Shown here: piece after piece, positions 3,411 through 25,280 of the stretch
Layout: each line of letters starts with the position of its first letter
Numbering within the stretch: the first letter of the stretch is position 1
IMG/VR virus record: IMGVR_UViG_2713896907_000003
Reading direction: 5' to 3' (one strand)
Length of the DNA stretch: 25,280 bases
Source: a virus
Lineage: Duplodnaviria > Heunggongvirae > Uroviricota > Caudoviricetes
The notes under the pieces: generated by a model
What the model was told of the DNA's origin: nothing
Seen by the model: only the letters and a program-made list of their open reading frames with translations
The model's database searches: none
Made by a program: the position numbers and the translations under genes

Positions 3411-4051
3411 TTGTCGGTGTACCTCTCTCGTTTACTCAGTTGTTCAGGAATATGGTGCAGCAGCTCGCCGTCGCCGCAGTAAATTGCGGCGTGATTCGGC
3501 ACCGATGAACCAAAACAGCACAGCAGCACATCGCCCGGCTGCGCCGCTGACAACGGCACCTGATACAGCCCTGTGGCCTCCAGATTATCCAGATAGAGAT
3601 TCTGACCGTTACGCCACCAGTCATCCTCACGATGAAAATCCGGCATCTCAATCCCCGCCAGATGGTAAGCGTCCCGGAACAGCGTGTAACAGTCCGTCAC
3701 CCCGTGCTCAAAGCGCCGCCCGGTAAGATGTGGCACACAGCGGAACTTGTGAATCGCCCCCCGGCAGACCAGCCACCACGGCAAATCACTCTGCACCTGC
3801 AACCGCCGGTCAGCCTCACTCAGCCAGGGCAGACCACCGGGGTGGCTGTGAACCAGCGCCACAATCCCACCCTGCATCTCTGCCCGCAGCCAGTCCTCCG
3901 GCGACATCCGGAAATACTCCTCCGGCTCACCGGAGATATTCACGCAGGGAAAATATCTGTCCCCCTCCGACGTTCTCACCACGAAGCCGCACGACTCCGC
4001 TGGCGCACATCGTCTGGCGTGCGCCAGAATCGCTGATTCTGTCTCTGTCAT
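3308..4051 (-). CDS. K: Tail tip assembly protein K (JAMM/MPN plus NlpC/P60-like)
   Basis: 247-aa ORF containing an HSHPGG...SEAD JAMM-like motif and a TDCYTLFRD Cys region. Start is ambiguous: the internal ATG at 3907 would give the 199-aa product annotated in lambda; the long form starts 5 bp after L. Confidence 0.8.
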   Translation of the reverse strand: MTETESAILAHARRCAPAESCGFVVRTSEGDRYFPCVNISGEPEEYFRMSPEDWLRAEMQGGIVALVHSHPGGLPWLSEADRRLQVQSDLPWWLVCRGAIHKFRCVPHLTGRRFEHGVTDCYTLFRDAYHLAGIEMPDFHREDDWWRNGQNLYLDNLEATGLYQVPLSAAQPGDVLLCCFGSSVPNHAAIYCGDGELLHHIPEQLSKRERYTDKWQRRTHSLWRHRAWHASAFTGIYNDLAAASTFV

Positions 4052-4056
4052 GGGAT

Positions 4057-4755
4057 TTACTGCGAAAGTTTGTTAATGGAAAGGTAACCGCCAAAGTTGC
4101 CGACGTTATTGCGGAACTTACAACCGCTCAGGCATTTGCTGCATTTATCCTTCGTGATATCGGACGTCGGCTGGTCATATTCATCCGCGACCGCCGGACC
4201 GTGATAACCGCACTCATCGCCGCGATAGGTCCAGGTGCAGGTGTTGGCCAGCATGATACGTCCCGGAAAAACAGCGCCGTCCGTTTCCGTCGGCGTGGAC
4301 AGTACAAAAGAGGCACTCACCGCGCTCAGTTCGCTGCACTGCTCGATGCGCCAGCGACTGATCACCTCCTGCTCCGGATCGGCGTCGCTGTTTCCGTTGA
4401 CGAAGTTCACCGCATCCAGAAAACGGGCGTAAACCTTACGCCGGACAACCGTTCCGCCGACCAGACTCTGCATATCTTCCACCATCCCGGTGACCATGCC
4501 GTACAGGTTAGAGACTGCCAGCGTGGGCCGCGTACTGGTGCCTTTGCCATTCAGTTCAAAACCACTCCCCTGAATGGGATACGGCTGATACTGTCTCCCC
4601 TGCCAGGTGACCGGCTCACCTTTTTCGTTCTGCTCATTACAGAAAAAATAACGTTCTCCACCGACCTCTGTCAGATCGATTTCCCAGAGCACCACGCTGG
4701 CTGACTGCTCCGCACGGGTGCATTCATTCAGTGTTTCCTGCCGGATATCCTGCAT
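4057..4755 (-). CDS. L: Tail tip protein L
   Basis: 232-aa ORF MQDIRQETLNECTRAEQSASVVLWEIDLTEVGGERYFFCNE... matches lambda gpL as recalled. Confidence 0.9.
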   Translation of the reverse strand: MQDIRQETLNECTRAEQSASVVLWEIDLTEVGGERYFFCNEQNEKGEPVTWQGRQYQPYPIQGSGFELNGKGTSTRPTLAVSNLYGMVTGMVEDMQSLVGGTVVRRKVYARFLDAVNFVNGNSDADPEQEVISRWRIEQCSELSAVSASFVLSTPTETDGAVFPGRIMLANTCTWTYRGDECGYHGPAVADEYDQPTSDITKDKCSKCLSGCKFRNNVGNFGGYLSINKLSQ

Positions 4756-19463: not shown

Positions 19464-19928
19464 TCACGGTATACACTGGGTACGGATATATTCCTGTGCT
19501 CCTTCCAGTTGCTTCTGCATTGTCATCAGCCGTTCTCTGAGGATGAAATAATCCCGTTCAGCGGTGTCTGCCAGTCGGGGGGAGGCTGCATTATCCACGC
19601 CGGAGGCGGTGGTGGCTTCACGCACTGACTGACAGACTGCTTTGATGTGCAACCGACGACGACCAGCGGCAACATCATCACGCAGAGCATCATTTTCAGC
19701 TTTCGCATCAGCTAACTCCTTCGTGTATTTTGCATCGAGCGCAGCAACATCACGCTGACGCATCTGCATGTCAGTAATTACCGCATTCGCCAGCTTCAGT
19801 TCTCTGGCATTTTTGTCGCGCTGGGCTTTGTAGGTAATGGCATTGTCGCGGTAATGATTAACAGCCCATGACAGGCAGGCGATAATGCAGATAACCAGAG
19901 CGGAGATAATAACGGTTACCCTGCTCAT
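19464..19928 (-). CDS. Rz: Spanin inner-membrane subunit Rz
   Basis: Start at ATG 19928 in ATGA overlap with R; [44 protein letters not shown]... matches lambda Rz. Confidence 0.9.
19526..19708 (-). CDS. Rz1: Spanin outer-membrane lipoprotein Rz1, embedded in Rz in the +1 frame
   Basis: 60-aa [49 protein letters not shown]... with lipobox VVGC and a proline-rich segment, lambda Rz1-like. Confidence 0.85.
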
Positions 19929-20422
19929 TGTTGCCCCCACAAACAGACTTCACGCTCAATCTCGCGGCGAGTCATCAGCCCTTTCCATTGCTTACCGCCA
20001 GCGTATGTCCAGCGCCGTAGCTGATCACATGCGCCTTTGATATCGCCCTGGTTTATTTTGCGAAGAAGCGTCGATGTTCTGAAATTGCCAGCGCCCACGT
20101 TGTAAACGAACGAGTAAAGAGCGCCGCGCGTTGTTTCCGGTATATCGACGTTGATGTACGGGTTAATTTGTCTGGCGACCGTGGCAAGGTCTTTATTCAG
20201 GAGGGCTTTGCATTCTGCTTCGGTATACGTTTTACCGGGCATGATGTCTTTTCCGGTGTGTCCGTGACATACAGTCCATACGCCAACGATATCTTTGTAT
20301 GGTATGTAGCTGACACCTTCCAGACCATCGTTACCACCTGGACCAGTGATGAGCACAGACGCTATGGCAACAGCCCCACCACCAATAGCAGCTGCAACAG
20401 CCTTGCGTAATGACGGCGACAT
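19925..20422 (-). CDS. R: SAR endolysin R (T4-lysozyme-like fold, phage-21 type)
   Basis: 165 aa; N-terminal Gly/Ala-rich weakly hydrophobic segment [20 protein letters not shown] (signal-anchor-release), then E..D..T spacing (E-9-D-6-T) as in T4 lysozyme; resembles R21 as recalled. TAATG overlap with S. Confidence 0.88.
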
Positions 20423-20628
20423 TATTCACCTCTCGCAGCCTTACGCTTATCTTCTTTAATCTTGAAATAAAGATTTGTCAGATACGTCAGCAGGCCAAAC
20501 AGCAGACTTCCCAGCACACCTATTGCCACCCACTGGGACGGAGAGACTTTGTCCAGCAGCTGCAGTAACCAGTATCCCGTCCCCACCGCTGACGTGGTGT
20601 ATGACACACCTGTTGTGATTTTTTCCAT
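20422..20628 (-). CDS. S: Pinholin S (phage-21 type, two transmembrane segments)
   Basis: 68-aa ORF with TMD1 [14 protein letters not shown] and TMD2 [18 protein letters not shown] and a basic C-terminus; sits directly upstream of the SAR endolysin. Confidence 0.85.
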
Positions 20629-20671
20629 CTGATGTATGTCTCCGTCACCGCCGACAGAAAATGAAAGTAAA

Positions 20672-20709
20672 GAAAAACAAAAAAGCCGCCAGTGTCACCC
20701 ACTGACGGC
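20672..20709 (-). terminator. Strong intrinsic terminator ~40 bp upstream of S
   Basis: Minus strand: 10-bp stem GCCGUCAGUG/CACUGGCGGC (one G-U), loop GGUGA, then UUUUUUGUUUUUCUUU. Confidence 0.6.
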
Positions 20710-21075
20710 CAACACCGGGAGCCGTGATTATGGCATTCAGGCTCTGCTAAAAATGCCAGATAACATTCCGGCTCCCCCCCTGATTCAGGTTATAAATGAC
20801 ACAATATCTTGACAACATCCGTCACTGTCTGTCAGAAAATGTACCGCCATATAGAAGCAACATGTGAAGTACATCTATCCTTTTGAGCCAGCACCTCTTC
20901 ACCGAAAGTCAGTGCTGGCTGTTTTTTTCCTTAATAAAGCATCTGTAACTGAAACAATCCGCATATTGATAATATATTGACAGGCATCATTGCTGTCTGT
21001 GAAAAATAAGTCTCTACAAACATATAAGGCCTTTTAGCCAGCGTCTTCTTTCAGGTCAGTCGCTGGCTTTTTTTA

Positions 21076-22917
21076 TTATGCTGCCGGTGCATTTATCTCC
21101 AGCACCAGACTTTCTATCTCAACGCCATACGCTGCATTTTTTGTAACATCCGTCAGCGTCAGCGCATTCAGTCCCAGTGTCAGACTGTCTTTTATAACCT
21201 GGAATGCCGGGCCAGCCACTCCATTCAGTTTCGGAGTAACCGTGGCACTGCCGGCGGTGAACACCAGCTCCAGCGCCTGCCAGTCGTTACTGTAGTTCCC
21301 GAATTCCCCCAGCTTCGTGTTTCCTGACTTCCTGTGGTGCATCAGATTCAGTTTGCCGTCGGTGGTCTGCGTAAAGTACGACATCAGGAACGGATCACCA
21401 GTCCCCGTCATCGTCACACCATCAGGAACAGGAGCGTCTGTGTACAGATAAAGCCCCAGTCCAAACTGGTTGTTTGTCAGAGCACCAGTCAGACGGAACT
21501 TACAGGTCAGCTTCCCTCCCCGGCTCAGCAGTGAGGATGCATTCTTCACCGGATGCGATAGTATCCAGCTTTTACCGCTCTCTTTGACAATTCTCAGTAC
21601 GCCATCCGATAACTGAACGCTGCCCCCGGTAATATTCCACCCCTGAGAAGCAACATCGCCGGCGGAGGCCAGAAGCGATATCGATTCCAGGGATGAGTCA
21701 TCCGGCGACGTAGAGCCACCTGCTGATGGTGTGTTCTCCGGTTTTACACCGGCAATAAATGCCTGTGAGCGCCCTGCCTGCGACAGGATAGCCGAGGCCA
21801 TTCTGTCTGCAATAATCCCACGCCGTGCCCAGGCACTGAAATGGCTCGCACGGTCTGCTGACGTCCAGTTGGCCGATGTCCGGGATGCCGCCCCGTAATA
21901 ACCGGCAGCCACGATATCCGGATCTTCCGTCGGCTCATTCGTGGGCGTGTTTTCACCACTGCCATCTGTCATAAAAGGAACAAAGAAAATATTCTGTGCT
22001 TCCTTTCCTTTATAAGCGCCATACACCGCCTCATATTGTGTGGCGTACTTCTGTTTCCAGATGTATGTGGTGTCGCCACAAATCCACGGCACTTTTTGAG
22101 CGCTTCCACCATGACACTGCGCCGCCATACCGGCAAGGTCGCTACGGAACTGCTGCACCATCGACTGGAATGCTGCAGGCTGCTGAGCATAGCCAGCGTT
22201 TGTCATATCGAATTCACCCTGCATCCAGCATACCGCCAGCAGAACATTTTCAGGATTCTTCGCCAGTGCCGCTTTTGTACGCAGTATCAGATCCTGATAT
22301 AACGGCTTACCCACTCCCCAGCGCGCAGAGTTCTGGCTGGCCCCCGTAGCTTCACTGAATGTACCATCCGCCCCTGCTGTAAATGCTGAACCGCCACGGG
22401 AGCAGGGAACCAGCAGAATCCCGGCATTTTTTGGGATATACGGCAGCAGACGTTTGGCGATATGTAAGCCCTGTCCGACACACCCATACTGACCTTTGCT
22501 TAAATCTGCTTCAGGGTGACTGAACACACTCATATCCTGCACATCATGCAGACAATGATCTGCCGGGATCACATCGTTAAATACACATGCCTCTCCGCCA
22601 GGCGTCACCGTACTGCGACGTGCCAACTGCTTAATACGCGGATCAGGCGCATCATATGAATCAGGAAGAGGAATACCCTCACCATAAGACATGGCATTGG
22701 ACTGTCCGGCCAGCACGACCACGTAGTACCACTCCGGCTCAGTTGTGCCACTGACCACCACATCACCTTCTGCTGCAATCGCCTGCATCAGGGTATAAGG
22801 AGTTATGGCCACAGGGCTACCAAACGGCTGCCAGCCTTCTTTCAGTTTTTGCGTGAGCTTGTCCGCCAGATCTGATGGCGATGCTGCCCGCACAATATCG
22901 TAACGATTAATCGACAT
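21076..22917 (-). CDS. nanS: Phage sialate O-acetylesterase NanS-p type (SASA/DUF303 N-terminal domain, C-terminal beta-rich domain)
   Basis: Start trimmed to ATG 22917 (GGGAGA RBS): MSINRYDIVRAASPSDLADKL...; contains the LAGQSNAMS motif typical of sialic-acid-specific acetylesterases; occupies the post-stx position of Stx-phage late regions. Confidence 0.8.
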   Translation of the reverse strand: MSINRYDIVRAASPSDLADKLTQKLKEGWQPFGSPVAITPYTLMQAIAAEGDVVVSGTTEPEWYYVVVLAGQSNAMSYGEGIPLPDSYDAPDPRIKQLARRSTVTPGGEACVFNDVIPADHCLHDVQDMSVFSHPEADLSKGQYGCVGQGLHIAKRLLPYIPKNAGILLVPCSRGGSAFTAGADGTFSEATGASQNSARWGVGKPLYQDLILRTKAALAKNPENVLLAVCWMQGEFDMTNAGYAQQPAAFQSMVQQFRSDLAGMAAQCHGGSAQKVPWICGDTTYIWKQKYATQYEAVYGAYKGKEAQNIFFVPFMTDGSGENTPTNEPTEDPDIVAAGYYGAASRTSANWTSADRASHFSAWARRGIIADRMASAILSQAGRSQAFIAGVKPENTPSAGGSTSPDDSSLESISLLASAGDVASQGWNITGGSVQLSDGVLRIVKESGKSWILSHPVKNASSLLSRGGKLTCKFRLTGALTNNQFGLGLYLYTDAPVPDGVTMTGTGDPFLMSYFTQTTDGKLNLMHHRKSGNTKLGEFGNYSNDWQALELVFTAGSATVTPKLNGVAGPAFQVIKDSLTLGLNALTLTDVTKNAAYGVEIESLVLEINAPAA

Positions 22918-23003
22918 CGAATTTCTCCCATGCACAGGAATAGAGTAAAAAAGGCCGAAACAGAAGAAAATCACAGGATGAGCATCTGCCAGTGGCAGAT
23001 CGT

Positions 23004-23029
23004 AAAAAAAGGCCGCGCCATGCGCAGCC
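23004..23029 (-). terminator. Intrinsic terminator ~90 bp upstream of nanS
   Basis: Minus strand: GGCUGCGC-AUG-GCGCGGCC (8-bp GC stem, one G-U) followed by UUUUUUU. Confidence 0.5.
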
Positions 23030-23514
23030 AAAACTCACAAGGAAAATGATAAGTAGAATCACAACTTTGATATATGCATGGTCCGGTGGCCGCCCCGGTG
23101 AATTCAGTATCAGCACCTGAATCCGCGCCCCCCAGTATTCCAGCCTGCTGATAACCTCTTACACATGGGGATTCGCCATACGGCAGTATTTCTAATAAAC
23201 AGTAAGTAAAAAAATCAAGCATTATTCAGACTGTTTCTTTTCATCACCGACCACCGTAATGTCACAATCCCACGCATCATCACACCATCAGCCAGTACCG
23301 ACATCAGACGCCCGGTGAAATCCACTGCCACCACCAGAAACAACATGATGACAGTCTGCCCAAAGCGTGCACTTTCCACAGATACTGCCCAGCGGTAACT
23401 GCAGAGCCTGCGCCAGTGGGTAACCAGCCTACGGAGGACGTCACACTGACTATCCCGTAAACCCATCCATGAAAAGCTTTATGGTTGATATGCACCGAAC
23501 GTGGCGCAGATATG

Positions 23515-23538
23515 AAAAAAGCCCGCCGAAGCGAGCCT
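23515..23538 (-). terminator. Intrinsic terminator downstream of the tRNA cluster
   Basis: Minus strand: GCUCGC-UUCG-GCGGGC (UUCG tetraloop) followed by UUUUUU. Confidence 0.5.
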
Positions 23539-23549
23539 GATAATAAATC

Positions 23550-23624
23550 TGGAGCGGGTGGCGGGAATCGAACCCGCATCATCAGCCTGGAAGGCTGAGG
23601 TAATAGCCATTATATGATACCCGC
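23550..23624 (-). tRNA. tRNA with anticodon loop CUUCCAG (anticodon UCC, glyT-like scaffold)
   Basis: 75-nt cloverleaf folded by hand: acceptor GCGGGUA/CACCCGC, perfect T-arm GCGGG-UUCGAUU-CCCGC, perfect anticodon stem UCAGC/GCUGA, CCA encoded. Confidence 0.75.
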
Positions 23625-23627
23625 ATA

Positions 23628-23703
23628 TGGTGCCGACTACCGGAATCGAACTGGCGACCTGATGATTACAAGTCAGTTGCTCTACCATTGGAGCTAAACC
23701 AGC
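23628..23703 (-). tRNA. tRNA-like gene, aberrant (weak anticodon stem; loop CUUGUAA; isotype uncertain, possible pseudo-tRNA)
   Basis: 76 nt with perfect D-arm GCUC/GAGC, T-loop UUCGAUU and CCA end, but the anticodon stem pairs at only 3 of 5 positions and the T-stem has one mismatch. Confidence 0.5.
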
Positions 23704-23708
23704 ATGTT

Positions 23709-23783
23709 TGGCGGGACAGCGTGGACTCGAACCACGATAAGAAGGTTAACAGCCTTCCGTAATGATCTTTATACGACTGACCC
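23709..23783 (-). tRNA. tRNA with anticodon loop CUGUUAA (anticodon GUU, Asn-like by sequence)
   Basis: Perfect T-arm CGUGG-UUCGAGU-CCACG and anticodon stem GAAGG/CCUUC; acceptor stem has one mismatch; CCA encoded. Confidence 0.65.
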
Positions 23784-23787
23784 CAAT

Positions 23788-23830
23788 AAAAAAAGCCACC
23801 GTTGCAACTTAAGAGTCACTAACGGCAGCT
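23788..23830 (-). terminator. tR'-like terminator immediately downstream of the late promoter
   Basis: Minus strand: 9-bp stem GCUGCCGUU/AACGGUGGC (two wobble pairs) with a 17-nt loop, then UUUUUUU; lies between the promoter and the first tRNA. Confidence 0.45.
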
Positions 23831-23837
23831 TACCTTC

Positions 23838-23870
23838 TAATTATGGCTAAATGGATAATTGCATGTCAAG
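23838..23870 (-). promoter_or_regulatory. Late promoter pR'-like (sigma70 -35 TTGACA, 18-nt spacer, -10 CATAAT) overlapping the 3' end of Q
   Basis: Minus strand: TTGACA (23869-23864), spacer tgcaattatccatttagc, CATAAT (23845-23840); position just after Q mirrors lambda pR' (established knowledge). Confidence 0.45.
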
Positions 23871-24365
23871 GCCTTTAACAGCAACATGCTTAACTTTCTC
23901 AACACGTTTACGCATTTTGAAAGCATTTTTCATTGGCTGGTATAAAACAAATAATGACGCTTTCAGGATGTCGTCAATTTCGTTTCTACAGGTTGCCAGT
24001 GAAGGTTTTCTCCATCCCTCGCCACCACGTCCACACATCTTGCGTGGCTTTGCAGTCGCGTGATAGTAGGATGCAATTGCTCGCTTAGATGAACCATGAG
24101 CGTAGTAGCTGAGGAGGATGCCGAAGGCTTTCTTGTCAATGTACATGACGGAATCGACGACCTGAGAAATCAACATTCCATCATCATCATTACACATTGG
24201 CCTTGTCATAACTCTTCCCGGCTCTACGCTCTCCATGAACTTAGCTATTACGCTGCTCATGCGCTTTTCCAGACGACCTGAATAAACCCATGCGCCCCAC
24301 AGTTCAAGCCAGCCATTCAGCCACTCGTGCTGTTCTTTGGTGAGGTTTAGTTCTCTTATGCCCAC
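23847..24365 (-). CDS. Q: Late-gene antiterminator Q (non-lambda Q family)
   Basis: ORF upstream of the late promoter, tRNAs and lysis genes; LELWGAWVYSGRLE motif resembles the QuuD-type Q family as recalled. Start placed at GTG 24365 behind a GGGAGAAGG RBS; the track's longer form (start 24422, GTG, no RBS) overlaps ninG. Confidence 0.65.
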   Translation of the reverse strand: MGIRELNLTKEQHEWLNGWLELWGAWVYSGRLEKRMSSVIAKFMESVEPGRVMTRPMCNDDDGMLISQVVDSVMYIDKKAFGILLSYYAHGSSKRAIASYYHATAKPRKMCGRGGEGWRKPSLATCRNEIDDILKASLFVLYQPMKNAFKMRKRVEKVKHVAVKGLDMQLSI

Positions 24366-24408
24366 GCGCCTTCTCCCTTGTGATTTGGAATGTGTTTTAC
24401 TGAGAACG

Positions 24409-25020
24409 TCATGCAGCCTCACTTCTGCTGTTTCGCAGTTTTTTAAGTTTCTGTTGATACTCCGCCTTGATGGCCCTGCACTCTTCGACAGTCCAGCGAT
24501 GGCGGTTATGGTCTGATTCGATTTCCTCTACTGCTTCCTGCCCGATGCGGTTAATCAGTTCGACACGATACGGAACGAGATTTCCGCTTTTATGCTGGTT
24601 GCACACCACGCATTGCTTGTGAATATTGCGTTCATCAAACCGGAGTTGAGGTGCCGCAGCAGTTGTCCGGTAATGCCCGGCATCCCACTGAGCAGACGTG
24701 AGCGTTCCGCACGAGATACATGGTAAGTCGCGGTCTCTTTCTCTGATGAAGGCGTTTACGGCTTGTTGGGCTTGTTTAATCCAGTAACTGCGGGGCTTTA
24801 AGGCGAGTTTTCTAATCTTAAGTTTATCTTTCTGTTTCTGCTCCTCTCGTCGTCGTTTCTTCTCTGCTGCTTTTTCCGCTTTTTCGCGTTCTTTGCTTCG
24901 TCGTTCGAGTGCTATCTTGGTTCCACACTCTGGAGAGCACCACCACTGATTAGCGAATGCAGGATGAAACCATTCCCGACATTCATCGTTTTTACATCGT
25001 CTTCGCGCTGGTTTAGCCAT
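24409..25020 (-). CDS. ninG: NinG / Rap recombination-associated structure-specific endonuclease
   Basis: 203-aa [50 protein letters not shown]... matches lambda NinG as recalled; GAGGAAGAAG RBS. Confidence 0.9.
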
Positions 25021-25225
25021 CGTCTTCTTCCTCGTGCATCGAGCTATTCGGATCGCTCATCAGCTCTGCACAGCAGTGCTCACACAAGTGAACTTCCAGC
25101 ACATGCAGCTTCTGACCGCAATTAGCGCACGTTAAAGCCCGCTCGACGCTTTCTTGTTCGTAACTTCGATTTGGGTCAATCACCTTGTATTCCTCGCACG
25201 ATGTCTTAGCCACCGGATATCCCAC
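25013..25225 (-). CDS. ninF: NinF-like small Cys-rich protein
   Basis: C-terminal [46 protein letters not shown] matches lambda NinF; N-terminus differs and the start is uncertain (GTG at 25225 or a downstream GTG with a GAGGAA RBS). Confidence 0.75.
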
Positions 25226-25280
25226 AGGTGAGCCGTGTAGTTGAAGGTTTTTACGTCAGATTCTTTTGGGATTGGCTTGG

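Follow-up and report, generated by a model that had tools for sequence, protein, structure and literature searches.

A lambdoid prophage with the stx slot of Shiga toxin phages but no toxin gene carries a worn tciB copy and a PasD/STnc100-family small RNA gene

The 632-bp interval between the tRNA genes and the nanS-p-type esterase gene (23549..22918, read on the minus strand) of the 25,280-nt stretch of viral DNA analyzed here, referred to as the window, lies in a lambdoid late operon and is the slot for accessory genes ("morons") that stxAB fills in Stx phages; here it has no toxin gene. We estimate a probability of about 0.8 that the slot consists of a post-tRNA terminator, a tciB leader and gene lacking tciA, a PasD/STnc100-family small RNA (sRNA) gene, and the nanS-p leader, with no toxin. 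This is an ordinary variation on a prophage layout already known, and the sRNA and the tciB copy both belong to known families.

The late region runs Q, pR'/tR', three tRNA genes, interval, nanS-p-type esterase gene, and S-R-Rz/Rz1, all on the minus strand. This order had been proposed from the letters alone, and each of its parts was located by profile, Rfam, open reading frame (ORF), promoter, and terminator scans. The Q antiterminator gene (24422..23847; Pfam Phage_antitermQ, E = 1e-25) is followed by a pR'-like promoter (TTGACA-18-CATAAT, 23869..23840; promoter scan score, 11/12) and the tR' terminator (hairpin 23831..23790, then U7; fold z = -3.2). The whole pR'/tR' part, 23785..23869, aligns collinearly with the annotated pR'/tR' of phage 21, and the late-control region including Q (25279..23626) is 92% identical to phage 21 DNA. 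The tRNA genes are tRNA-Asn-GTT (23783..23709; Rfam, 52 bits), a tRNA-Thr-UGU-like gene (23703..23631; Rfam, 47 bits), and tRNA-Gly-TCC (23624..23550; Rfam, 47 bits). The Rfam matches to the first and the third are slightly shorter, spanning 23783-23712 and 23624-23553. ARAGORN called only the first and the third. The middle gene has a mismatched anticodon stem, and its counterpart is annotated as Thr in phage 21 and in phage JLK-2012, where the cluster reads Asn/Thr/Gly. To the right of the interval lies the sialate O-acetylesterase gene (22917..21076; Pfam DUF1737, SASA, and DUF6645), which is 81 to 83% identical to homologs in phage 434 and a Stx1 phage, followed by the holin gene (20628..20422), the lysozyme gene (20422..19925), and Rz (19940..19464) with Rz1 embedded at 19708..19526. 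Alignment also located PasA in the window, with 83/85 identity and a 1-nt indel.

The interval qualifies as the toxin-cargo slot by position, as both of its flanks match sequences that border stx in Stx phages. On the left is a conserved post-tRNA terminator (23492..23549, minus strand; stem 23538..23519 plus a T-tract). Positions 23548..23492 show ~83% identity to the 57-nt spacer that separates the last tRNA from stx2A in VT2-Sakai and >100 other Stx2 phages; the matching VT2-Sakai segment (4001-4058 of our sequence L005) ends 32 nt before stx2A. The same terminator is 88 to 95% identical in many IMG/VR prophages, where it lies ~530 nt upstream of tciB. The right part of the interval is an STnc100-family element plus the nanS-p leader, which in Stx1 and Stx2 phages is found just downstream of stxB. 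STnc100 has been placed 75 nt downstream of stx2 (PMC12370729), and we find the element 75 to 79 nt after stxB in Stx2 and Stx1 phages. There, between stx2B or stx1B and the esterase gene, its Rfam scores are 208 and 191 bits; where tciB precedes the element and the esterase gene, the scores are 107 bits in JLK-2012, 41 bits in phage 434, and 43 bits in the window. Both intrinsic terminators described earlier are present, at 23538-23519 (fold z = -4.1) and 23029-23011 (fold z = -3.2).

The Stx-converting-phage synteny of Q, pR'/tR', tRNAs, slot, STnc100, nanS-p, and S-R-Rz is present in the window with stxA and stxB absent, as had been claimed. Searches of the interval with Stx1A, Stx1B, Stx2A, and Stx2B (tblastn) and with both operons (blastn, word size 7) gave no match, and no toxin remnant is left; the best stx match anywhere in the window had an E value of 0.1 and lay outside the interval. 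The ORF list holds no stxA- or stxB-sized ORF between Q/tRNAs and nanS-p. The genes present between the tRNAs and nanS-p are the tciB/DUF3927 gene and the sRNA gene. AsxR and AgvB (RF02703 and RF02702), both found in two Stx phages (L005 and L002), gave no Rfam match in 22850-23900 even at an E value of ≤10. An anti-sRNA of this type on the plus strand was likewise rejected, the hairpin on that strand lacking a T-tract. Comparison with stx-negative lambdoid prophages showed that phage 434 and EPEC PP2 share 23353..22918 with the window and that JLK-2012 is collinear with it. The view that the interval might be common backbone unrelated to the stx insertion point is thus half correct, because about two-thirds of it is backbone common to these two non-Stx phages. 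Cargo at the slot differs among related prophages, being Stx, TciA plus TciB, a 247-amino-acid (aa) membrane protein plus TciB, or TciB alone.

The sRNA gene is 178 nt long (23181..23004, minus strand) and was identified by Rfam model RF02076 and by alignment to PasD. It was missed in the earlier note, where its terminator figured as the second intrinsic terminator. The window sequence scores 43.0 bits (E = 5e-7 to 9e-8) with the model aligned over its full length (positions 1-206); this is below the gathering threshold of 47 bits, and the gene is missing from a scan at that threshold. Its ends are homologous to those of PasD2 (741157-741328), and it aligns end to end with PasD1 and PasD2 through the promoter region, mapped 5' end, seed, and terminator. 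Its position, after tciB and before nanS-p on the strand they share, fits the family pattern of cargo (stxB or tciB) on one side and nanS-p or a holin gene on the other. The structured 5' core (23181..23076) is 77% identical to JLK-type STnc100 and 59% identical to PasD, while the 3' seed/terminator module (23075..23004) is 83% identical to PasD1. Within this module, UAUCAUUUUCCUUGUGAGUU contains the seed UGUGAG (23034..23039, minus strand; CTCACA on the plus strand), which is identical to that of PasD1 and PasD2, where it pairs with the target motif CUCACA(GG) (PMC8550237, Fig. S5 and Table S7). The module ends in the intrinsic terminator GGCUGCGCAUGGCGCGGCC plus U7 (23004..23029), whose stem is identical to the PasD1 stem. 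The seed and terminator stretch is 41/42 identical to PasD1, compared with 59 to 77% identity elsewhere in the RNA, which suggests that selection acts on the seed.

A putative sRNA promoter (23186..23221, minus strand) comprises a -35 element, TTGATT (23221..23216), which overlaps the tciB stop codon, and an A/T-rich -10 element (TATTAG/AAAT). We assign it by homology: column by column, it lines up with the sequence preceding the mapped 5' ends of PasD1 and PasD2 (PMC8550237, Table S6), where the -35 element reads TTGACT. The consensus promoter scan did not call it, and its -35/-10 spacing is short at 15 to 16 nt. Compared with the family fold, the window sRNA retains all six pairs of P1, one of them G-U, and all eight of P3. 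Three of the six P2 pairs are broken, and P4 has moved to an alternative CCGG/CCGG stem. Among the core helices of the family, P3 shows compensatory changes, GC to AU or the reverse in nine sequences and AU to UA or GC in six. The whole sRNA folds no more stably than its shuffles (z = -0.75), an uninformative result. Three ORFs that overlap the sRNA gene (22930..23049 and 22992..23120 on the plus strand and 22971..23222 on the minus strand) have no Pfam match and were rejected.

PasD1 and PasD2 are 172 to 173 nt long, were validated by Northern blotting, have Hfq-dependent stability, and had their targets mapped by RIL-seq (PMC8550237). The demonstration of a discrete Hfq-dependent RNA of ~170 nt applies to these two sRNAs in EPEC only (PMC8550237), and we infer the expression, Hfq dependence, and targets of the window copy from its relatedness to them. 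In a lysogen, pR' transcripts would end at tR', and the sRNA would be made from its own sigma-70 promoter. The U-tract of its terminator would bind Hfq, and the seed UGUGAG would pair with core- and accessory-gene mRNAs that contain CUCACA, as has been shown for PasD1 and PasD2 in EPEC. After induction, Q-modified RNA polymerase would pass tR', the post-tRNA terminator, and the sRNA terminator, allowing expression of nanS-p and the lysis genes.

Among the prophages sampled, the 3' cassette of the STnc100 family tends to go with the upstream cargo: the PasD seed with the 247-aa membrane protein and TciB, the JLK type with TciA and TciB, and the Stx type with Stx. This association hints at a modular family, whose conserved and structured 5' domain would be combined with exchangeable seed cassettes that travel with the neighboring moron. 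The window sRNA might itself be a natural recombinant, a JLK/STnc100-type 5' scaffold joined to a PasD seed/terminator cassette and caught as an intermediate of exchange, an idea that we offer tentatively and regard as somewhat against the odds.

The other gene in the slot accounts for most of the 83-codon ORF that the earlier note had listed as doubtful. That ORF exists as described (23466..23215, minus strand), and inspection of the sequence agrees that no Shine-Dalgarno sequence precedes its ATG. It is not an orphan, as its last 54 codons encode a TciB/DUF3927 homolog. The tciB-like gene starts at a GTG at 23379, which is conserved and aligns with the tciB start of JLK-2012, and ends with the TGA at 23217..23215. 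Residues 3 to 52 of its product match positions 4 to 53 of the 54 in PHROG 1470 ("TciB-like"; E = 1e-17), and Pfam DUF3927 (PF13064; cutoff of 25 bits) matches over the full length with 44.6 bits, compared to 71.7 bits for JLK-2012 and 53 bits for phage 434. The family motif between the two hydrophobic helices, DF(T/S)xR, is retained as DFTGR. The helices themselves are interrupted, by G7/Q8/T9 in helix 1 and by R36, T40, and R42 in helix 2, and S44 stands where 38/39 relatives have a Pro after that helix. Positions Q8, R36, T40, R42, and S44 are hydrophobic or Pro in 38 to 39 of 39 relatives. The gene differs from that of O55:H7 strain CB9615 by two nonsynonymous and no synonymous substitutions, and the copy in a relative, L010, has two frameshifts. 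Sequence comparison thus indicates that this tciB copy is probably degenerating. A 75-aa "conserved hypothetical" ORF of Stx1 phage YYZ-2008 was rejected as a TciB equivalent, as it overlaps STnc100. A literature search on tciB and DUF3927 found nothing useful.

Upstream of tciB, positions 23380..23491 (minus strand) are the retained leader of a tciA-tciB cassette, and the ATG (23466) and 29-codon extension of the 83-codon ORF fall within it. Window positions 24378..23404 match JLK-2012 (L004, 1175..2146) at 88% identity, and homology resumes in tciB; alignment to JLK-2012 and tblastn found no tciA (TerB family; ~430 nt, 143 aa) in the window. The deletion junction can be placed to within ~25 nt and no finer, because an GGTAAAAA-like sequence is common to both ends.

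Signs of wear in both genes raise the alternative that the DNA between the tRNAs and nanS-p is dead, tciB and the sRNA being relics of a tciAB-sRNA module and only the terminators and the nanS-p leader mattering. The polar and charged residues at TciB transmembrane positions, the loss of its near-invariant Pro, the substitution pattern and frameshifts just described, the broken P2 hairpin, and the subthreshold Rfam score all point this way. In nearly identical O55:H7 copies of the sRNA, the invariant ATGG/P1 motif has further mutations and the score is 34 bits, and the L010 copy has a different seed, so that the sRNA lineage of the window and its relatives may be decaying. Against complete inactivity stand the near identity of the 42-nt seed and terminator stretch to functional PasD1, the conserved promoter-region alignment, and the intact P1 and P3, and we consider dead DNA unlikely.

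A second alternative grants the element a function in cis, as a structured 5' leader or attenuator governing read-through into nanS-p rather than a trans-acting sRNA. At the sampled loci, the element almost always immediately precedes nanS-p on the same strand, late transcription has to pass the terminator at its end, and its 5' core is conserved while its 3' module varies. However, the gene that follows EPEC PasD1 encodes a holin and no esterase gene is present, yet PasD1 is an abundant Hfq-bound sRNA with trans targets. Cis and trans roles are not mutually exclusive, and a leader in place of an sRNA seems improbable to us.

Translation of the full 83-codon ORF would yield a new, N-terminally extended membrane protein as genuine alternative cargo. 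The frame is open from the ATG in the window and in IMG/VR contigs L006 and L007, and its C-terminal part matches DUF3927. In CB9615 and L010, however, the ATG reads AGG and a 1-nt indel shifts the frame of the 29-codon extension, and neither the ATG nor the extension is conserved; the ATG lacks a Shine-Dalgarno sequence; and the family profiles match from the GTG onward only, at full length for 54 aa. We rejected the ORF in favor of the 54-codon GTG form and regard the longer protein as very improbable. That a former Stx phage lost stxAB, as in EHEC strains with stx loss, and left the interval as a deletion scar between the two preserved slot flanks is hardly credible, given that no stx-derived sequence was found at the protein or DNA level, that the tciA leader and tciB are collinear with non-Stx phages JLK-2012, 434, and EPEC PP2, that the tRNA set is that of phage 21 and JLK-2012 (Asn/Thr/Gly) rather than that of VT2-Sakai (Ile/Arg/Arg), that the sRNA 3' module is of the PasD and not the Stx-phage type, and that the AsxR/AgvB elements accompanying stx are absent.

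The rightmost part of the interval is the nanS-p leader (22918..23003, minus strand), which carries a hairpin (23000..22984) and the nanS-p ribosome-binding site GGGAGA (22929..22924) and shares 84 to 88% identity with its counterparts in phage 434, EPEC PP2, JLK-2012, and one further sequence (L012). A direct repeat reported here and in the adjoining sRNA terminator is real, but its exact shared core, AAAAAAGGCCG, spans only 11 nt (22947-22957 and 23005-23015). One more A is present in the second copy than had been written, and because of it the 13-mer given earlier fails against that copy at ≤1 mismatch. The tail of the first terminator supplies a third copy, 91% identical (23515-23525). Read on the coding strand, the motif consists of CGGCC or CGGGC and then T6-7, that is, the 3' half-stem and T-tract of a terminator, and folding found no partner stem for the copy at 22947-22957, which leaves a terminator-tail-like motif without a stem in the leader (22957..22945). 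The direct repeat is only the tail common to the terminators.

The best complete Escherichia coli genome is ~91% identical to the window over 85% of its length, and the interval is shared only by O55:H7 genomes (n = 7, 98%) and contigs L006 and L007 (99 to 100%). The "empty" stx slot of this toxin-negative lambdoid prophage is not empty, as a regulatory sRNA and the remains of tciAB, a tellurite resistance-type moron, occupy it. In EPEC and EHEC, the PasD/STnc100 family rewires the expression of host and virulence genes. The sRNA escapes annotation pipelines, which place spurious ORFs over it; examples are opposite-strand "hypothetical protein" pseudogenes from PGAP and the 75-aa ORF of YYZ-2008. 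The slot is bounded exactly, on the left by the post-tRNA terminator and on the right by the STnc100-family sRNA, and these edges could serve to catalogue exchanges of cargo among Stx-like prophages. The general picture of these phages is unchanged by the finding.

Compared with the late region of VT2-Sakai and 933W (Q, tRNAs, stx2AB, STnc100, AsxR, nanS-p, and S-R-Rz), the window has the same gene order and conserves both slot flanks but lacks stxAB and AsxR and has another tRNA set. Its late-control region and lysis genes are instead phage 21-like (~90 to 92% DNA identity). Phage 21 is 90 to 92% identical to the window from NinE through Q, pR'/tR', tRNA-Asn, tRNA-Thr, and S21-R21-Rz and lacks a 2,992-nt block (23625..20634) that holds tRNA-Gly, the terminator, tciB, the sRNA, nanS-p, and PasA. 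JLK-2012, from E. coli O55:H7 DEC5E, has the same upstream region of Q, tRNA(Asn/Thr/Gly), terminator, and leader (88% identical). Its tciB likewise has 54 aa and a GTG start and is followed by an STnc100-family sRNA and nanS-p, whereas its tciA (143 aa, TerB family) has no counterpart in the window. Window TciB is only 41 to 46% identical to the TciB proteins of JLK-2012 and 434 and has charged residues in its predicted transmembrane helices.

STnc100 (RF02076) of Stx1 and Stx2 phages occupies the same slot boundary between cargo and nanS-p and shares the closing helix P1 and P3 with the window sRNA. The Stx-phage copies score 190 to 208 bits versus 43 bits for the window, differ in the 3' seed/terminator module, and are adjoined on the opposite strand by an AsxR/AgvB anti-sRNA that the window lacks. 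The kinship of PasD and STnc100 has been described, with PasD2 upstream of an esterase gene and PasA downstream (bioRxiv 10.64898/2026.05.13.724894), and EcOnc13 in EHEC is a PasD homolog (PMC8550237; bioRxiv 10.64898/2026.05.13.724894). At every other sampled locus with the PasD seed, a gene for the 247-aa membrane protein lies upstream; the window is without it. The 5' core of the window sRNA is nearer to JLK-type STnc100 (77%) than to PasD (59%), its P2 hairpin is damaged, and its length is 178 nt versus 172 to 173 nt for PasD1 and PasD2 of EPEC E2348/69. These share with it the late-operon strand, the homologous 5' end GYAUGG, the UGUGAG seed, and the terminator stem. Both occupy the same place, directly after a DUF3927/tciB gene, PasD2 is also upstream of an esterase gene, and PasA lies across the esterase gene in the window as it does in EPEC PP2.

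In this lambdoid prophage, which is not a Stx phage, the 632-bp interval between the tRNAs and the nanS-p-type esterase gene (23549..22918, minus strand) is equivalent to the stx slot and shows no toxin remnant. Within it lie a terminator, a tciB gene in decay, and an sRNA gene of the PasD/STnc100 family. Every part belongs to a known family, and the sole modest novelty is the mosaic sRNA.

The late region of the window lies on the minus strand. Q (24422..23847; Pfam Phage_antitermQ match) is followed by a pR'-like promoter (23869..23840, promoter scan), a tR' hairpin and then U7 (23831..23790, fold z of -3.2), three tRNAs by Rfam, the interval, the esterase gene (22917..21076; DUF1737, SASA, and DUF6645 domains), and lysis genes for a class II holin, lysozyme, and Rz with Rz1 embedded. 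Pfam, promoter and terminator scans, and Rfam thus bear out the order read earlier from the sequence alone. ARAGORN reports only Asn-GTT and Gly-TCC tRNAs. The middle, Thr-UGU-like tRNA (23631-23703, minus strand; Rfam, 47 bits) is missed by ARAGORN here and in phage JLK-2012, and its counterpart is annotated as Thr in phages JLK-2012 and 21; given the mismatches in the anticodon stem of the window copy, this tRNA may be weakened or a pseudo tRNA. The pR'-like promoter and tR' (23785-23869, minus strand) are collinear with pR'/tR' as annotated for phage 21; the -35 to -10 spacer, which in that phage serves as the Q-binding element, differs between the two. By analogy with StxS, the short constitutive transcript from pR'/tR' of Stx phages, pR'/tR' of the window would give rise to a similar transcript. 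In O55:H7 CB9615 (L001 2523-3194) and JLK-2012 (L004 526-1197), ninG and Q are separated by a ninI-like Ser/Thr phosphatase gene; this gene is absent from the window (24378-24422), where ninG abuts Q.

The window was compared with VT2-Sakai (Stx2), YYZ-2008 (Stx1), JLK-2012, phage 434, O55:H7 CB9615, EPEC E2348/69, and phage 21. The left flank of the interval (23548..23492, the post-tRNA terminator) is ~83% identical to the 57 nt after the last tRNA of VT2-Sakai, where the counterpart stops 32 nt upstream of stx2A; over 100 records of Stx2 phages share this match. On the other side, Rfam places STnc100 (RF02076) between the esterase gene and stx2B in VT2-Sakai (208 bits) or stx1B in YYZ-2008 (191 bits); independently, STnc100 is situated 75 nt downstream of stx2 according to PMC12370729. 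The STnc100-family element scores 107 bits in JLK-2012, 41 bits in phage 434, and 43 bits in the window (E of 5e-7), and in each it lies just upstream of the esterase gene. By position, the interval is therefore the stx slot together with the conserved flank on its right. Searches with Stx1A, Stx1B, Stx2A, and Stx2B by tblastn and with both stx operons by word-7 blastn gave chance-level matches only, none inside the interval, and an Rfam search even at E ≤ 10 placed no AsxR/AgvB, the anti-sRNAs that adjoin STnc100 on the opposite strand in Stx phages, in 22850-23900. The earlier note's observation of a Stx-phage-like late region without stx is confirmed, and its interpretation is partly supported: the toxin-cargo slot stands as a position, and no stx remnant was found in it.

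The 83-codon ORF lies where it had been placed, with a Pfam DUF3927 match confined to its C-terminal part; only the C-terminal 54 codons are TciB/DUF3927. Relatives annotated as TciB or DUF3927 are 52 to 54 aa long, and the GTG at 23379, kept in all close relatives, aligns with the GTG at which JLK-2012 tciB begins. The 54-aa product from this GTG gives a full-length match to PHROG 1470 ("TciB-like", E of 1e-17) and scores 44.6 bits against Pfam DUF3927. The 29-codon extension is judged not to be coding sequence, because both CB9615 and L010, a further relative, have AGG in place of the ATG at 23466 and a 1-nt indel that shifts the frame of the extension. Upstream of tciB, JLK-2012 is collinear at 88% identity (Q, tRNAs, terminator, tciA leader); the ~430-nt tciA gene (TerB family) is missing from the window, where TciA was not found by tblastn, and homology to JLK-2012 restarts in tciB. 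The post-tRNA terminator lies ~530 nt upstream of tciB in many IMG/VR prophages, a spacing expected with tciA present. Window TciB has G7/Q8/T9 in helix 1, R36, T40, and R42 in helix 2, S44 in place of a Pro that 38 of 39 relatives carry, and a DUF3927 score below those of the JLK-2012 and phage 434 proteins. The gene differs from that of CB9615 by two nonsynonymous and no synonymous changes, and the L010 copy carries two frameshifts. The window copy looks degenerate, and we conclude that it is a decaying remnant of a tciAB moron.

Two intrinsic terminators (z of -4.1 and -3.2, terminator scan and fold) sit at the positions first noticed. The direct repeat also exists, though not exactly as described: its common core is AAAAAAGGCCG, exact at 22947-57 and 23005-15, with a third copy of 91% identity at 23515-25. 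Read on the coding strand, the copies are a terminator 3' half-stem plus T-tract; that at 22947-57 folds without a partner stem.

PasD1 and PasD2 of EPEC E2348/69 (173 and 172 nt) are validated by Northern blot, depend on Hfq for stability, have targets identified by RIL-seq, and pair through their seed with CUCACA(GG) motifs (PMC8550237). PasD is related to STnc100, and in Stx-like prophages PasD2 and PasA flank the sialate esterase gene (bioRxiv 10.64898/2026.05.13.724894). Alignment of the window with both EPEC PasD loci spans the tciB stop codon, the mapped PasD 5' end, and the terminator. A -35-like TTGATT (TTGACT in PasD) overlaps the tciB stop and would belong to a putative promoter not called by consensus scan; the mapped 5' end GCAUGG appears as GUAUGG from 23181, and UAUCAUUUUCCUUGUGAGUUUUGGCUGCGCAUGGCGCGGCC is 41/42 identical to PasD1. 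From this homology we infer that the 178-nt unit (23181..23004, minus strand) is a PasD/STnc100-family sRNA gene with PasD seed and terminator intact. Its Rfam score is under the gathering threshold, and its whole-RNA fold is not unusually stable; the O55:H7 copies are further damaged (34 bits).

Scanning the collection by core pattern yielded 54 different core sequences. The alignment of 24 representatives folds into hairpins P2 to P4 closed by helix P1, and P3 shows compensatory changes. The window sRNA keeps P1 and P3, and three of six P2 pairs are broken. The RNA is a mosaic: identity in the 5' core is 77% with JLK-type STnc100 and 59% with PasD, and in the 3' module 83% with PasD1 and 64% with JLK. 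Slot cargo in the sampled prophages comprises Stx, TciA plus TciB, a 247-aa membrane protein plus TciB, TciB alone, and others. Among 95 non-identical loci, a sample biased by the search pattern used, the 247-aa membrane protein plus TciB is the sole cargo that accompanies the PasD seed cassette outside the window. Across these loci (L088-L207), the 3' seed/terminator cassette tends to track upstream cargo, the PasD seed going with the membrane protein plus TciB, the JLK type with TciA plus TciB, and the Stx type with Stx. The most frequent cassette (CCCCUCUCCGGAGGGG terminator) accompanies several cargo types and also unidentified cargo. Tandem STnc100-core copies ~470-480 nt apart, with differing central inserts, occur at L094, L102, L103, L110, L124, L153, L162, and L164. 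Protein-coding ORFs or pseudogenes in public annotations that cover the STnc100/PasD sRNA and its flank (YYZ-2008, L002 5460-5687; CB9615, L001 4499-4656; L086 3198-3439; L087 2801-3199; JLK-2012, L004 3008-3124) are probably spurious gene calls.

The nanS-p leader (23003..22918, minus strand; hairpin 23000..22984, RBS GGGAGA 22929..22924) is 84 to 88% identical to those of phage 434, EPEC PP2, JLK-2012, and L012. The gap separating nanS-p from the holin gene contains a PasA sRNA homolog (20844-20928, plus strand) that runs antisense to the late operon and is identical at 83 of 85 positions to EPEC E2348/69 PasA (NC_011601 743499..743415). Over this entire gap the window shares 98% identity with EPEC PP2 and phage 434.

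Among complete genomes, the whole interval occurs at 98% identity only in seven O55:H7 genomes, in which PGAP calls a "DUF3927 family protein" and, across the sRNA, a pseudogene; the tciB-sRNA-leader part is common to ~690 E. coli genomes at ~78% identity. Phage 21 is 92% identical to the window over 25279..23626 and 90.5% over 20633..19486. In phage 21, Q, pR'/tR', tRNA-Asn, and tRNA-Thr are followed directly by S21-R21-Rz, whereas the window carries an inserted 2,992-nt block (20634-23625) of tRNA-Gly, terminator, tciB, sRNA, nanS-p, and PasA.
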